A stretch of 64,000 nucleotides of DNA. Origin: an uncultured Pelagibacteraceae bacterium. GTDB taxonomy: Bacteria > Pseudomonadota > Alphaproteobacteria > Pelagibacterales > Pelagibacteraceae. Below are positions 1 to 6,489 of this stretch, in pieces. Position 1 is the stretch's first letter, and each line of letters begins with the position of its first letter. The stretch lies in the NCBI GenBank assembly GCA_902560855.1, contig CACENJ010000003.1, forward strand, positions 16,180 to 80,179, in the 5' to 3' direction. The position numbers were made by a program, and so were the translations under genes. The notes below the pieces were generated by a model. It saw only the letters and a program-made list of their open reading frames with translations, was not told the origin of the DNA and made no database searches.

Positions 1-511
1 TTAAATCCCATGTTCCACTAGCACATACTTGGGCAGCGTTAGCGTGTGGATGTCTCCACCAATCTAAATAAAATCCTGGAGCATAATCTGCTGCCTCAAC
101 AGGTATTACAGCTCTAAATTTATTTGGATGACGTAACGCTAATTGTAAAGCAACATTTCCACCAAAAGACGAGCCCATAAAAATTGGTTTTTGTAACCCC
201 AAAGCATCACATAACTTTACAATAAAATTACAGTAATGTTCTGCTTTTAACTTGTATTCTTCTTTCCACCATTCTTTATTATGTGGTGGATCTGATTTTC
301 CATGTCTTGGAAGATCATAAGCAATTACATTGTAATCTTTAGTAATTTCTGGGTCTTCAAGCAAACCTCTCCATTGATGATTATGACATCCAGCAGTATG
401 TTGACAAATTAAAGGTATCCCTTTTCCATTTTGAAGATAAAAAACTTTGTATTCACAATCGTCAACCTCAATTGTAACATAACGTCCTATAACATCATGA
501 TGTTTTACCAT
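1..511 (-). CDS. alpha/beta hydrolase (3' end runs off window)
   Basis: Not in the ORF track. Hand translation from ATG at 511 (RBS AAGGAG upstream) gives MVKHHDVIGRY...CQHTAG...AYDLPRHGKS...FMGSSFGGNVA, i.e. the DLPxHGxS motif and a G-S-S-F-G nucleophile elbow. Frame is open to the window edge. Confidence 0.85.
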   Translation of the reverse strand, partial: MVKHHDVIGRYVTIEVDDCEYKVFYLQNGKGIPLICQHTAGCHNHQWRGLLEDPEITKDYNVIAYDLPRHGKSDPPHNKEWWKEEYKLKAEHYCNFIVKLCDALGLQKPIFMGSSFGGNVALQLALRHPNKFRAVIPVEAADYAPGFYLDWWRHPHANAAQVCASGTWDL

Positions 512-542: not shown

Positions 543-932
543 TTAAACTGGCACTCCTGTTTTTCTTAATAGTTCAAACTGAACTGTGAAATTTCTAAGA
601 TTTTTCATTAAAACCAAATGATTGCCTTCAATTTTTAAGTCTTTTAAGAAACTTGCTGACCATATGCCATGGTACATTGGTTTTGGCATTGGTTGGCCAA
701 ATTCTCTCCAAGTTTTTGCTGATGCTCTTAAAGCAAAGTCGTATGGATCTAAAGGCGAAGGACTTGTATTGATATTTTTTACCTTGCCATCGTGCATTTC
801 AATAATTACTTTTGCACTTTCCATATCAAACATAAATGAGCATGTATAATATTTTGCCATAGCTTTAATAGTGTCGTCACTATTAGTAGCTTCTTCATAC
901 TTTTTTGCCCAGTTATCTAAACCACTACTCAT
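543..932 (-). CDS. SCP2 (sterol carrier protein 2)-like lipid-binding protein
   Basis: 129 aa. Pattern 'IIEMHDGKV...DFALRASAKTW...LKIEGNHLVLMKN' resembles SCP2-fold proteins. Co-oriented in the rhodopsin-flotillin operon. Confidence 0.55.
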   Translation of the reverse strand: MSSGLDNWAKKYEEATNSDDTIKAMAKYYTCSFMFDMESAKVIIEMHDGKVKNINTSPSPLDPYDFALRASAKTWREFGQPMPKPMYHGIWSASFLKDLKIEGNHLVLMKNLRNFTVQFELLRKTGVPV

Positions 933-947
933 AATATTTTACTTTCG

Positions 948-2915
948 TTACTTAGAACCTTTGGTTCCTTTAGTTGGATCATTATCGAAGTTCATATGAT
1001 AATCTTTTTTCGGATTATCATAGTCACCAAGAATATTTCTGATGTTGCTTATTTCTCCAGGATTCATTCCAATTTCTTTAAGCAAACTATCTAGAAATGG
1101 TTGGTGTGCTCTATAACGTAATGCTGAACTAACAACGTTATCAGCTAGATTACCACTTCTTCCAGATCCTCCAGTAGTAGAAGATTCTCCACCACCTGAA
1201 CCAGAGGTTCCACTAAATCCAGGTAAACCATTAACATCAACAATTTTTATATCTCCGATGTTTGCCATTGGTTTAACACTTTCTCTAATGATTGCTTCAA
1301 TTTTTTCAGCAAGTTTTAATCTTAAAGCGCTTCTTCTGCTGGCATCGCTTCTTAAATTCTCAGCAGCATTTAATGCTTCCTTACCGGCTGCATCTATTTC
1401 ATATCTTAGTTTTGCTGCCATGGTTTCATATCTATCTTGCTCAGCTTTCGAAGCTGCAGAAATAACATCAACTTTTTTAATACCCTGAGCTTTTTCAACA
1501 TATCTTGCTGAGTTGGCTTTCTCTTCAGCTTCAATTGCTTTCGCTCTTGTAGATTCTTCTTCAGCTTTAGATTTCAAAACTTGTTTTGATTTATTTATTA
1601 TTTCAAGATTTTTTTGATGTTCTTCTATGCTTAATCTCTTTGCTTTTTCTATATCAAGAAGTCTAACTTCTCTTTCTGTCTCAATTTTATGAGAATCTAT
1701 ATTTTTTTGCTGAGCAATTTTAGCATTTTTAATTTCTTGTTCAGAGATTATTTGTGCTTCTTCTGCATCTTTTTGTCTTTCAGATTGTTCTTTAATGATG
1801 GTAGCCTTTTCTTGTGCACGTTTCATGTCAACAAGTCTCTGTTTTTCAAGTCGCGCATATTCACTTTCTTTGTCCAAATTTAAGATTTTAACTTCTGTTT
1901 CTAAATCTTTTTGTCTTATTTCGTAAGCAGCATTTTTTTCTAACTCATTTTGCTCTTTTCTACGTTTTTCTATTTCCTCAATTAATCTTGTTTCTGTTAA
2001 TTTTCTTTCAACTTCGATAACCTGATTTTGAGAAATTTTTGCAACTTCAATTTGTTCTTGGCTTCTTATCTCTGCCTCTTCAGCTTCACGTTCTTTTTCT
2101 GCTTTTTGTTTTACAGTTTCAGTTCTTTCGTTAGCTTTTTGAATAGCTACTTCTCTTTCTTGTTGATATCTAGAAAACTCTTCATTTTTTTTTATTTCTA
2201 ATTCTTTTTGGATAGTTTCTAAATTTTTATTTTCAATTGAAATTTTTGTATCCTGCGTTATATCGTTTCTTTTTTTCTTTCTAGACTCAATTTGTTCAGT
2301 TAATTGTGTCAAACCTTGTGAGTCAAAAGTATTTGCAGGATTAAACTGTTCAATTGGAGTTTGATCTAAAGATATTATTGAAACAGTTTCTAATGCTAGA
2401 CCTGTATGACCAATGGATGCATCTGCTATCTTTGTGACTTCTTTTACAAATTGTCCTCTATTTTCTTGAATCTCATCTAGTGTCATTTTTGCAGCAACTT
2501 CCCCAAGTGCATCTGCAAAACGTCCCTGAACAACTTCTCTTAAATGTTCAGGATCAAGAGTTCTGTTACCTAAAGTTTGAGCTGCAGTTGATACTGCTCT
2601 TTCGTCAGGCGGAACTTTTGTAAAAAATTCTGTTACAAGCTCAGCTCTCATTCTATCTTTTGTTATTAAAGATTTATCTCCGCCCCTTTTAATTGTTATG
2701 CTTAATGTTCGCATTCCAACCTGTGTAATATTGTGAATTATTGGTAAGACAAATGCACCGCCAGATATAACAACCTTTTCTCCAAGCATTCCAGTACGTA
2801 CAAATGAAACTTCTTTTGATGATCTTCTGTATAGCCAATGCAATAAATAAACTATAATTGCTATCGCCAATGCTAATAAAATTATTGCTGCTATTATATC
2901 TGCTCCTCTTGTCAT
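948..2915 (-). CDS. flotillin (SPFH/Band 7 family, YqiK/FloT-like)
   Basis: N-terminal TM helix, SPFH domain (FVRTG..GEKVV..GGAFVLPIIH; LITKDRMR), long E/K/A/Q coiled coil, C-terminal Flot region (IIRESVKPMANIGDIKIV). RBS AGGAGG. Confidence 0.93.
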   Translation of the reverse strand: MTRGADIIAAIILLALAIAIIVYLLHWLYRRSSKEVSFVRTGMLGEKVVISGGAFVLPIIHNITQVGMRTLSITIKRGGDKSLITKDRMRAELVTEFFTKVPPDERAVSTAAQTLGNRTLDPEHLREVVQGRFADALGEVAAKMTLDEIQENRGQFVKEVTKIADASIGHTGLALETVSIISLDQTPIEQFNPANTFDSQGLTQLTEQIESRKKKRNDITQDTKISIENKNLETIQKELEIKKNEEFSRYQQEREVAIQKANERTETVKQKAEKEREAEEAEIRSQEQIEVAKISQNQVIEVERKLTETRLIEEIEKRRKEQNELEKNAAYEIRQKDLETEVKILNLDKESEYARLEKQRLVDMKRAQEKATIIKEQSERQKDAEEAQIISEQEIKNAKIAQQKNIDSHKIETEREVRLLDIEKAKRLSIEEHQKNLEIINKSKQVLKSKAEEESTRAKAIEAEEKANSARYVEKAQGIKKVDVISAASKAEQDRYETMAAKLRYEIDAAGKEALNAAENLRSDASRRSALRLKLAEKIEAIIRESVKPMANIGDIKIVDVNGLPGFSGTSGSGGGESSTTGGSGRSGNLADNVVSSALRYRAHQPFLDSLLKEIGMNPGEISNIRNILGDYDNPKKDYHMNFDNDPTKGTKGSK

Positions 2916-2933
2916 AAATTATACCTCCTTAAT

Positions 2934-3632
2934 TTAAGCCTCTTTCCTTGTATCTTCTAAAGCCGCACTATAAATTATCATTCCAAAAATAATTTTATTC
3001 AATATATCGGCTAAGTTGTAAATTATGTTTAAGCTGTTGATGTTTGCTCCTCCAGCTAAGTGCTCTATAAAATATCCAATATGATAAATCGAAAAACCTA
3101 TTGTAATGATTAATCTATTTGCAAAAAATGCCATTTGAACACTTTCATTGCCACACGATGCGTTTTTCCTTCCCGTATCTCCCATGTAAAGCTCGCCAAT
3201 GATATAAAGCCAGCCAACTATACCAACCAGGAATCCTAGTGTAACACTCATATATCCATATGCTCCTAGAAGCTGAGCTATTACCCAAACAAGTGTTCCG
3301 ACAAGCAAACGCCAAAACATTCCTCTTTTAACGTCAGTAACTGACTTTAACATTACATAAAAAGTCAATATTGTAAGTGGAAAGGTTAAAATCCAATCAA
3401 TATATCTTAGCGCGGTTGGCGCTTGACCATTTAAAACCCATAAATTTTTTGCATAGAAGTAGTGTATAGAGGACATTAGAGCTATTACGCCTACAAGATT
3501 CATGGCCGTACCCCATCTGTTCGACAAACGACCTCTTTCAAGAAAGAAAAATATTGCTGCACCTATCATTGCAACAGAAATTAACCAAAAAGATCCCCCA
3601 ACAACGTCTTGTGGAAGCAATAATTTGTTCAT
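2934..3632 (-). CDS. flotillin-associated microbial rhodopsin (FArhodopsin-type proteorhodopsin paralog, DTT motif)
   Basis: 7-TM pattern. Helix C RYIDWILTFPLTILTF (D79/T83/T90), helix G YNLADILNKIIFG (D209, K213), His57. Directly upstream of flotillin with an 18-bp gap. Confidence 0.92.
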   Translation of the reverse strand: MNKLLLPQDVVGGSFWLISVAMIGAAIFFFLERGRLSNRWGTAMNLVGVIALMSSIHYFYAKNLWVLNGQAPTALRYIDWILTFPLTILTFYVMLKSVTDVKRGMFWRLLVGTLVWVIAQLLGAYGYMSVTLGFLVGIVGWLYIIGELYMGDTGRKNASCGNESVQMAFFANRLIITIGFSIYHIGYFIEHLAGGANINSLNIIYNLADILNKIIFGMIIYSAALEDTRKEA

Positions 3633-3950
3633 GAGTCCCTTTTCACTCCCTATTTAAAATTATTCTAAATAATTTAGATATTTAAATTCAAATTTTGTCA
3701 CAAATCAATCTAAAATGTCTTAATTTTTTATATATATATTTTTTAGAAGTAGATTCTAAAAAAATTATTTTAAATCTAACGAGAAAAAAATAAATTTTTT
3801 TATAAAATACAATCCATACTAGATTTATTTTTATTTCAATTAATACTAGAATTTTTTCTAACTTTTTTAATTTTTCAAAGAAATTAAATTGACTGTTTAT
3901 AATCCTAAAATTTTATTTCGTTGGCCATTTATTAATTATAATATGTGTCA

Positions 3951-4589
3951 ATGCTATCCAAAGTAATAACTATTTCGCAGCAAAAAGGTGGCAGTGGAAA
4001 AACAACGCTAGCCGTTCATTTAGCTCTTGCTTTCATAAAGTATCATAATTTAAAAGTTGCTGTCATTGATACAGACCCTCAAGGAAGTTTGGGTAAATGG
4101 TATATGATCAGAACAGAAAAAAAAGTTTCGAACGATAATTTAACTTTTAAAACTGCTAGTTTGTGGGGAGCTCAATATGAGTCAAAAGCATTAAAAAAAG
4201 ATCATGATATTGTAATTATAGATACGCCTCCAAAAATAGAATCTGATGCTCGACCATCTATTGAGTCTGCAGATTTAGTTTTAATTCCTGTAGCGGCATC
4301 TCATGTTGATTTTTGGGCAACAGGTGCGATTGTTGAAATAGCAAAAAAAGCAAATAAAAAAATTTTAATACAAATTAATAGATCAAGCCAAAGATCAAAA
4401 CTTATTACCAAAACAAATGAATTTATAAAAAGTTTAAATCTTTCTGCAACTAAAACAATAATTGGAAATCGTCAAATTTTTGCCGCCTCTATGGGTGAAG
4501 GCAAAACTGCTGTTGAAAAACAAAAGAAGAGTAACGCTGTTGAAGAAATTAAGCAGCTCTCTGAACAAATCTTGTCAGAAGTAAAATAA
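3951..4589 (+). CDS. ParA/MinD-family ATPase (orphan, short ParA type)
   Basis: Deviant Walker A QQKGGSGKTT, IDTDPQGS, IIDTPP. No parB adjacent. ATG at 3951 preferred over GTG at 3945. Confidence 0.88.
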   Translation: MLSKVITISQQKGGSGKTTLAVHLALAFIKYHNLKVAVIDTDPQGSLGKWYMIRTEKKVSNDNLTFKTASLWGAQYESKALKKDHDIVIIDTPPKIESDARPSIESADLVLIPVAASHVDFWATGAIVEIAKKANKKILIQINRSSQRSKLITKTNEFIKSLNLSATKTIIGNRQIFAASMGEGKTAVEKQKKSNAVEEIKQLSEQILSEVK

Positions 4590-5059: not shown

Positions 5060-5115
5060 TTAATAAAAAAATTAAAATTGATGACAAAAATATACCTCAG
5101 ATGTAATGTTTGATT

Positions 5116-5949
5116 ATGGAAATTAAATTATTATCAGGAGCCTTAGGTGCTGAAATTAAAGGTGTTGATCTTAAAGATACCTCTGATGAAAATTTTAAAA
5201 AAATTAACGATCTACTTTTAGAGCATAAAGTTATTTTTTTTAGAGGTCAAACAATTACTTCCGAAGAACAAATAGCTCTAGCAGAAAAATTTGGTCCCTT
5301 AGAAACACATGCTTACGTTAAAGGTTTAAAAAAGTATCCTGAAATAGTTAGAATAATAAAAGCTGAAGATGAACAAAACCAATGGGGAGAAAATTGGCAT
5401 AGCGATGTTAGTTATAATGTCAAACCTACAAAAGCTGTAATATTAAAATCATTAAAAATACCTCCGGTAGGTGGAGATACATGTTTTGCAAATATGGAAC
5501 TTGCTTGGGAAACTTTAGATGAAGAAATAAAAAATAAAATTAGAGATAAAAAAGCAGTGCATAGTTCTTTAGGTGCAGAATTTTTTTTAGATAGTTATAA
5601 AAAAATGGAAGGCAATAAAAAAAAAAATTATAATGAATATTCAAATGAACATCCAATAGTAAGAACACACCCGGAAACAGGTAAAAAAATACTATTTGTA
5701 AATTGGACATATACCAAAAAAATTATTGGTTTAGATAAAGAAGAAAGCGATAAAGTTTTAAATAAAATTTTTGAACATCAAGCTAGGCTAGAATTAACTT
5801 GTAGATTCACTTGGACAGAAAATACAGTATGTATATGGGATAACAGAAGTGTTATTCATTTTGCAATTGCTGATTTTTACCCTGGAAGAGGACTTGGGTA
5901 TGAAAGAGTTATGGATCGAATTGCAATAGAAGGGGATGCGCCAGTTTAA
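5116..5949 (+). CDS. TauD/TfdA-family Fe(II)/2-oxoglutarate dioxygenase
   Basis: LGAEIKGVDL, WHSDVSY (HxD), GGDTCFANM, HPIVRTHPETG, WDNRSVIH. Confidence 0.9.
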   Translation: MEIKLLSGALGAEIKGVDLKDTSDENFKKINDLLLEHKVIFFRGQTITSEEQIALAEKFGPLETHAYVKGLKKYPEIVRIIKAEDEQNQWGENWHSDVSYNVKPTKAVILKSLKIPPVGGDTCFANMELAWETLDEEIKNKIRDKKAVHSSLGAEFFLDSYKKMEGNKKKNYNEYSNEHPIVRTHPETGKKILFVNWTYTKKIIGLDKEESDKVLNKIFEHQARLELTCRFTWTENTVCIWDNRSVIHFAIADFYPGRGLGYERVMDRIAIEGDAPV

Positions 5950-6489
5950 TTGAAATCAATAATAAAAAAAATAATTAAAAATTATAAAACTAATAAATCA
6001 CTCTACATAGGTGAGAAAGTGACTATGACTGAACATATGATTCAATCGGCAATGTTAGCTGAAAAAAATAAGTGCTCTTCTAGCTTGATATGCGCTTCTT
6101 TACTTCATGATTATGGTCACTTTATTTTGGATAATCCAGATGAGTTAGTAAATAAAAAAAAAGATGGAAAACATGAAGATATTGCTTATCTATATCTCAA
6201 AAAATATTTTAAAAAAAATGTTGTAGAACCAATAAAAATTCATGTTAAAGCAAAAAGATATTTGGCGAGAAATGAAAAATATTACAAAATTCTTTCACAA
6301 GCTTCTAAAGCTAGTTTGCATTTGCAAGGTGGAGTTATGAATGATGAAGAAGCTGAAAAATTTGAAAAAGAAAAATTTTTCGATGATGTAATTAAATTGA
6401 GAAAATTTGATGAAGCTGCAAAAAAAATAGGTATCAAAATGAAAGATATTAATGATTATAAAAATTTATTAAATTCAAATTTATTATGA
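5950..6489 (+). CDS. PhnZ/TmpB-like HD-domain di-iron oxygenase
   Basis: YIGEKVTMTEHMIQSA, LLHDYGH, KHE, HVKAKRYL, SLHLQGG, LRKFDEAAK are the PhnZ-clade HD motifs. TTG start abuts the upstream stop. Confidence 0.8.
   Translation: MKSIIKKIIKNYKTNKSLYIGEKVTMTEHMIQSAMLAEKNKCSSSLICASLLHDYGHFILDNPDELVNKKKDGKHEDIAYLYLKKYFKKNVVEPIKIHVKAKRYLARNEKYYKILSQASKASLHLQGGVMNDEEAEKFEKEKFFDDVIKLRKFDEAAKKIGIKMKDINDYKNLLNSNLL

Follow-up and report, generated by a model that had tools for sequence, protein, structure and literature searches.

Flotillin-associated rhodopsins (FArhodopsins, here FARs) are known as a second rhodopsin of SAR11, HIMB59, and Pseudothioglobus, whose gene adjoins that of a flotillin (Haro-Moreno et al. 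2023, PMC10308929). They are without about 23 N-terminal residues, and in the Pelagibacterales type, the motif is DTT and the tuning site is occupied by Thr (PMC10308929). The DTT-T rhodopsin of SAR11 was first seen by Olson et al. (2018, PMC5864233); in E. coli, such rhodopsins gave neither pigment nor pumping, even when a signal peptide of proteorhodopsin (PR) was added. These E. coli tests lacked flotillin, and misfolding is possible according to the authors (Olson et al. 2018, PMC5864233). In waters of the lower photic and twilight zones, FArhodopsins are abundant among streamlined plankton, including SAR11, and they show that the opsin fold can survive without a chromophore. The family has been linked to photic and twilight depths, and its cell function is a matter of conjecture in the literature.

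The solved member of the family, PsFAR, is colorless, and its cryo-EM structure (9R21) has no retinal density (Kovalev et al., bioRxiv 2025; cited as Structure 2025). H84, at the position of the polyene chain, was named the main blocker, and E120 occupies the beta-ionone site; retinal binding was obtained only with the double mutant H84V/E120G (9R23), in which M116 turns away from the C9 methyl and Y183/P184 are displaced by 1.9 Å (Kovalev et al. 2025). The cavities of PsFAR are small, fragmented, and water-filled (Kovalev et al. 2025). Among relatives of the protein discussed here, pentamer formation and absence of retinal have been seen, co-transcription of FAR and flotillin has been reported, and most of the freshwater members are without the lysine altogether.

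Identity of the rhodopsin and its gene cluster

The window, i.e., the whole stretch of DNA that was analyzed, comprises 64,000 nucleotides with a G+C content of about 30%, and derives from a genome (G000) whose assembly amounts to 1.05 Mb at 75% completeness; genomes of its relatives are about 1.0–1.5 Mb. At 2934..3632 on the minus strand, it carries a rhodopsin gene of 232 aa with an intact frame, the ATG of which is preceded by a GGGAG ribosome-binding site. The product matched Bac_rhodopsin in Pfam (E = 2.4e-26), and its top match among PDB sequences was a protein named “flotillin-associated rhodopsin” (9R21, E = 3.6e-88), with an E-value of 2.4e-58 for the nearest PR. The AF2 model (pLDDT 90.4) was again best matched by PsFAR 9R21 in Foldseek (TM 0.95). 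Pfam, the PDB matches, and the model searched with Foldseek all place the protein within the type-1 rhodopsin fold and the PR family. It is of the DTT-T type, with D79, T83, and T90 as the motif and T87 at the tuning position, and in a MAFFT alignment with the PR of the same genome, the single gap covered 23 N-terminal residues, as described for the Pelagibacterales subtype. No signal peptide was found in the FAR. PRs are recognized by DTE, in which a carboxylic residue serves as proton donor; this motif is absent here, with T90 in place of Glu. A TAT-type rhodopsin was considered and rejected, as D79 is kept.

The helix strings LVWVIAQLLGA and IGFSIYHIGY are both present in the SAR11 sequence of Table S2 of Haro-Moreno et al. 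(PMC10308929). In addition, the window FAR is 95% identical to G192:C2:54918-55607, the end coordinate of which is that of the published SAR11 FAR gene, and the published near-identical gene is of Pelagibacterales/SAR11 origin (Haro-Moreno et al. 2023, PMC10308929). The rhodopsin of the window is an already published Pelagibacterales DTT-T FArhodopsin and not a new variant. A sequence-only reading of this DNA had noticed a remodeled retinal pocket and presented it as new; since the protein is a FArhodopsin, this observation is real but already published, the remodeling being a defining property of the group.

In a quick maximum-likelihood search with IQ-TREE (midpoint root), 60 FAR-type sequences were separated from the PRs with an SH-aLRT value of 96, and the window FAR fell inside the SAR11-type clade (support 97). 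The genome G000 has two Bac_rhodopsin loci, namely the FAR of the window and a DTE-Q PR with a signal peptide on contig G000:C4, and FAR is thus a second rhodopsin beside a true DTE proteorhodopsin. The two proteins share 44% identity. The gene blh is also present in G000.

Directly downstream of the rhodopsin gene and on the same strand lies a flotillin gene (948..2915, minus strand; 655 aa), the product of which has Band_7/SPFH and Flot domains according to Pfam and is the sole Flot match in G000. The two genes are separated by a short spacer of 18 nt (2916..2933, minus strand), which holds the flotillin ribosome-binding site AAGGAGG and in which no terminator-like site was found. Four other genomes have the two genes arranged in this way, and Flot-domain genes were present in 15 of the 201 Pelagibacter genomes sampled. 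Elsewhere in Pelagibacter, a Flot-domain gene (G241:C39:4628-5032) is cut by the contig end; a protein search found no FAR-type rhodopsin in that genome (G241), and its FAR gene probably lies in an assembly gap.

The next gene after flotillin (543..932, minus strand) encodes a protein of 129 aa that matches SCP2 (sterol-carrier) weakly (Pfam E = 0.15, below the cut-off). The published FAR cluster has a sterol-carrier-domain gene at this position (Haro-Moreno et al. 2023, PMC10308929). At E = 0.15 for 543-932 (minus strand), the sterol-carrier annotation of the literature is weakly based at the sequence level. The N-terminal part of an alpha/beta hydrolase gene follows (2..511, minus strand) and runs past the window start, and the FAR cluster continues on the contig with genes for an N,N-dimethylformamidase (DMFase), an SSF symporter, an Fe-ADH, a metallo-beta-lactamase-fold protein, and BioY, together with carboxyltransferases, a biotin carboxylase, LamB/YcsF, and a permease. 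These genes match the published list, which places the rhodopsin within the conserved FAR gene cluster, and the contig terminates inside or near this cluster.

On the other side, a scan for sigma-70-type promoters in the spacer upstream of FAR yielded 16 sites, compared with 15.3 in shuffled sequence, i.e., no excess. A very AT-rich spacer of 312 nt (3633-3944) lies between FAR and a divergent gene for a ParA/MipZ-like ATPase (3945-4589, plus strand), after which comes a 4HBT thioesterase gene. Of the four further genomes with a FAR, three have these ParA-like and 4HBT neighbors flanking it, and the fourth locus ends after the ParA-like gene. Just past the FAR locus, genes for a TauD-family dioxygenase and an HD-domain protein lie back to back (5110-6489, plus strand).

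Pocket substitutions and their conservation

We compared the pocket with three PRs, including the own PR of G000, and with PsFAR; HMMER alignments against PDB sequences were gap-free for Med12 PR (4JQ6, residues 1-228) and PsFAR (9R21, residues 1-229). Helix D reads LVWVIAQLLGA in the window FAR versus LVMLIGGFIGE in Med12 PR, VVMLCGGYLGE in the own PR, and LVMVIGEFLGA in PsFAR. Helix F reads IGFSIYHIGY versus VGWAIYPIGY, VGWCIYPLGY, and IGWAIYPLGY, respectively. The sequence-only reading had named four changes, M to W116 and G to Q120 in helix D and W to F180 and P to H184 in helix F, and had noted that the lysine and counterions are kept. All four were borne out in the alignments to Med12 PR and the own PR, and R76, D79, D209, and K213 are indeed retained. 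Its green-proteorhodopsin (GPR) numbers M134 and G138 are consistent with the offset of +18 implied by T87 corresponding to PR position 105. That the substitutions fall inside the retinal pocket was likewise upheld, as the 1:1 alignment with PsFAR places 116, 120, and 184 at pocket positions.

Further changes had been overlooked, namely V to F84, G to A119, A or C to S181, and A to S54. Where PRs have V102, M134, G138, W197, and P201 (GPR numbering), the window FAR has F84, W116, Q120, F180, and H184, and the own PR of G000 carries V/M/GG/W/P at the sites altered in FAR. The pocket also shows the blocking pattern of FARs: an aromatic residue at 84 (F84), a blocker at 120 (Q120), and S54 in place of the PR Ala. 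By alignment, the F84 codon (PR Val; PsFAR H84), at the polyene-chain site, is located at 3381..3383, and the helix D codons W116-V-I-A119-Q120 (PR M..GG) occupy 3273..3287, with W116 at 3285-3287 and Q120 at 3273-3275. The helix F codons F180-S181-I-Y183-H184 (PR W-A/C-I-Y-P) occupy 3081..3095, with F180 at 3093-3095 and H184 at 3081-3083, and the codon of the retained Schiff-base lysine K213 is at 2994..2996, all on the minus strand. We take F180 to correspond to the Trp conserved in helix F (BR W182). Because the numbering is identical to that of PsFAR, F84, W116, Q120, and H184 stand at positions shown experimentally to line or block the pocket; by analogy, positions 84 and 120 would be those that block it and 116 and 184 those that line it. 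Relative to the own PR, the seven pocket changes add about 210 Å3 of summed side-chain volume, compared with about 92 Å3 for the two PsFAR blockers, both being rough sums of standard volumes.

Next, we consider how these residues are distributed among 113 near-full-length homologs. F84, T90, W116, A119, Q120, and F180 were present in all 12 clusters at an identity of at least 80%, and S181, H184, and K213 in 11 of the 12. The sequence-only reading had proposed conservation of W116, Q120, and H184 as a check, and these residues are present in 12, 12, and 11 of these SAR11-type clusters, respectively. Several of the SAR11-type clusters contain hundreds to thousands of metagenomic member sequences. 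Other FARs have M or F at 116 and keep W180 and P184, and among the 113 homologs tabulated, the pair W180F and P184H was seen only in the SAR11-type clade.

Position 84 is more variable across the wider set: 16 of the 113 FAR-like homologs have neither His nor Phe there, with Arg in P0091, P0097, P0098, P0101, P0103, P0109-P0112, and P0118, and Gln in P0060, P0073, P0083, P0094, P0100, and P0102. The published statement that all FARs have an aromatic residue at 84 therefore fails for this wider set. Separately, P0011 (84% identical; a single-member cluster from an 806-base contig) has both K213E and H184Y, which could reflect either a genuine marine variant without the lysine or an error in sequencing.

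Across 301 Pelagibacterales species genomes, the matches listed included the FAR type only in G000, G192, G109, G140, and G111, all of one genus, and the remaining matches listed were PRs at 44–50% identity. The window FAR is 93–95% identical to the copies in the four other Pelagibacter genomes, and the pocket signature and the flotillin neighbor are common to all five. G111 is an unpublished genome, and all conclusions hold without it. Across the five genomes, synonymous codons vary at S54, T83, F84, A119, Q120, S181, and D209, and the gene-wide pairwise dN/dS is 0.02–0.04 with saturated synonymous sites. The pocket pattern is not a product of chance, because it is fixed or nearly so in the SAR11-type clade, synonymous codons vary at pocket sites, and dN/dS is this low. 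The FAR gene is under purifying selection.

Chromophore, role, and alternative readings

We regard the Pelagibacterales FArhodopsin as a PR-derived opsin whose pocket is filled with side chains and which is most likely retinal-free and not a light-driven pump (probability roughly 0.85). In the former retinal site, F84 would fill the path of the polyene chain, W116 the region of the C9 methyl, and A119, Q120, and H184 the site of the beta-ionone ring. The sequence-only reading had suggested strongly shifted absorption, weak retinal binding, or a different aldehyde or lipid chromophore. With F84 at the place expected for the polyene chain, a strongly shifted spectrum or another polyene aldehyde is unlikely. 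The suggestion of weak retinal binding was right in direction, but a stronger form, no binding at all, fits the colorless PsFAR and the negative E. coli results for DTT-T rhodopsins. By analogy with these proteins, the window FAR most likely binds no retinal, and it most likely does not pump protons in the light, since T90 stands at the site of the proton donor. A pumping or sensory role at an unusual wavelength was rejected on account of the steric block and the published negative tests.

The retained Lys, Asp, and Arg core probably serves as an internal hydrogen-bond network, and K213, D79, D209, and S54 probably form such a network as in PsFAR. FAR and flotillin would be made from one transcript, and we infer that FAR may be a structural partner of flotillin membrane microdomains or a cargo in them, possibly together with the true proteorhodopsin of the cell. 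Two points should be kept in view. K213 is conserved though seemingly unused, which appears to count against the retinal-free reading. In addition, the SAR11-specific pocket changes are absent from the only solved FAR, as PsFAR, which is 58% identical, keeps M116, W180, and P184.

FAR might instead bind all-trans or another isomer of retinal in the native membrane, perhaps in a flotillin-dependent manner and with a strongly shifted spectrum. K213, D79, D209, R76, and Y183 are retained, blh gives the genome a route to retinal, flotillin was missing from the negative E. coli tests, and the family is tied to photic and twilight depths, yet we give this alternative only a very slim chance: F84 occupies the polyene site, and in PsFAR, according to its authors, a smaller residue at 84 combined with E120 prevents binding whatever the conformation. 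The SAR11 type adds W116, A119, and H184 to reach about +210 Å3 in all, and most freshwater relatives are missing the lysine. It is also improbable that the remodeled pocket holds some other small ligand, such as an ion, a fatty acid or lipid, or an aldehyde that is short or acyclic. Some of the SAR11-specific changes bring in polarity (T87, T90, Q120, S181, and H184) and not simply bulk, a retinal-free proteo-opsin with bound decanoate has been solved (8CNK, by title), SCP2-like and hydrolase genes come after in the operon, and the FAR authors leave other carotenoid derivatives open; however, the only cavities of PsFAR are the small, fragmented, and water-filled ones, FARs have no reported ligand, and such a ligand is so far a matter of inference. 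One version, which we hold to be a long shot, is that the clade-specific W116, F180, and H184, together with Q120, S181, T87, and T90, provide an ion or a non-retinal ligand with a small polar site, the occupancy of which would be relayed to flotillin via helices E to G.

Loss of the pump motif (DTT), loss of the pocket, and the lack of activity in E. coli would also be expected of a decaying, functionless duplicate of PR. We consider this hardly credible: the frame is intact, the signature is kept across clusters with thousands of metagenomic members, and the gene, reported to be co-transcribed with flotillin in relatives, is located in streamlined genomes. The pseudogene reading is rejected by the dN/dS of 0.02–0.04 at saturated synonymous sites. 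The window contributes one more copy of a published protein, and the modest addition to published work is that, among the sampled homologs, only the SAR11-type clade has the W180F/P184H/M116W set.

Comparison with known systems

The closest described protein is the SAR11 FAR of Table S2 of Haro-Moreno et al., which shares with the window FAR the helix D and F strings, DTT-T, the lack of a signal peptide, the downstream flotillin, and the gene cluster. About 5% of residues differ between SAR11 FAR copies and the window FAR, none of them at pocket sites. PsFAR from Pseudothioglobus is more distant (58% identity), although it aligns 1:1 over residues 1-229 and matches the model with a TM of 0.95. 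Common to both are S54, D79, D209, and K213, a bulky aromatic side chain at 84, a long polar one at 120, and the lack of a proton donor; however, PsFAR has H84, M116, G119, E120, W180, A181, P184, F57, and a DTL motif, whereas the window FAR has F84, W116, A119, Q120, F180, S181, H184, H57, and DTT. H57 (window 3462-3464) is the helix-B histidine kept from PR (GPR His75, which pairs with the counterion Asp). The Phe at this position in PsFAR alters inter-protomer contacts, and therefore the pentamer interface of the window FAR may be more PR-like.

Proton-pumping PRs (GPR/BPR and the own PR of G000) are of the same fold and family, and their R, D, D, K, Y183, and H57 (PR His75) are kept in the window FAR. 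In contrast to them, the window FAR is without a signal peptide, has T90 for Glu and T87 for Q or L at the tuning position, and is changed at seven pocket positions; no retinal binding or pumping has been reported for FAR relatives. Lysine-less opsins (Rh-noK, haloarchaeal opsin relatives, and freshwater FARs) share with it a chromophore-free opsin fold, whereas the window FAR retains the lysine and its pocket would be closed sterically instead.
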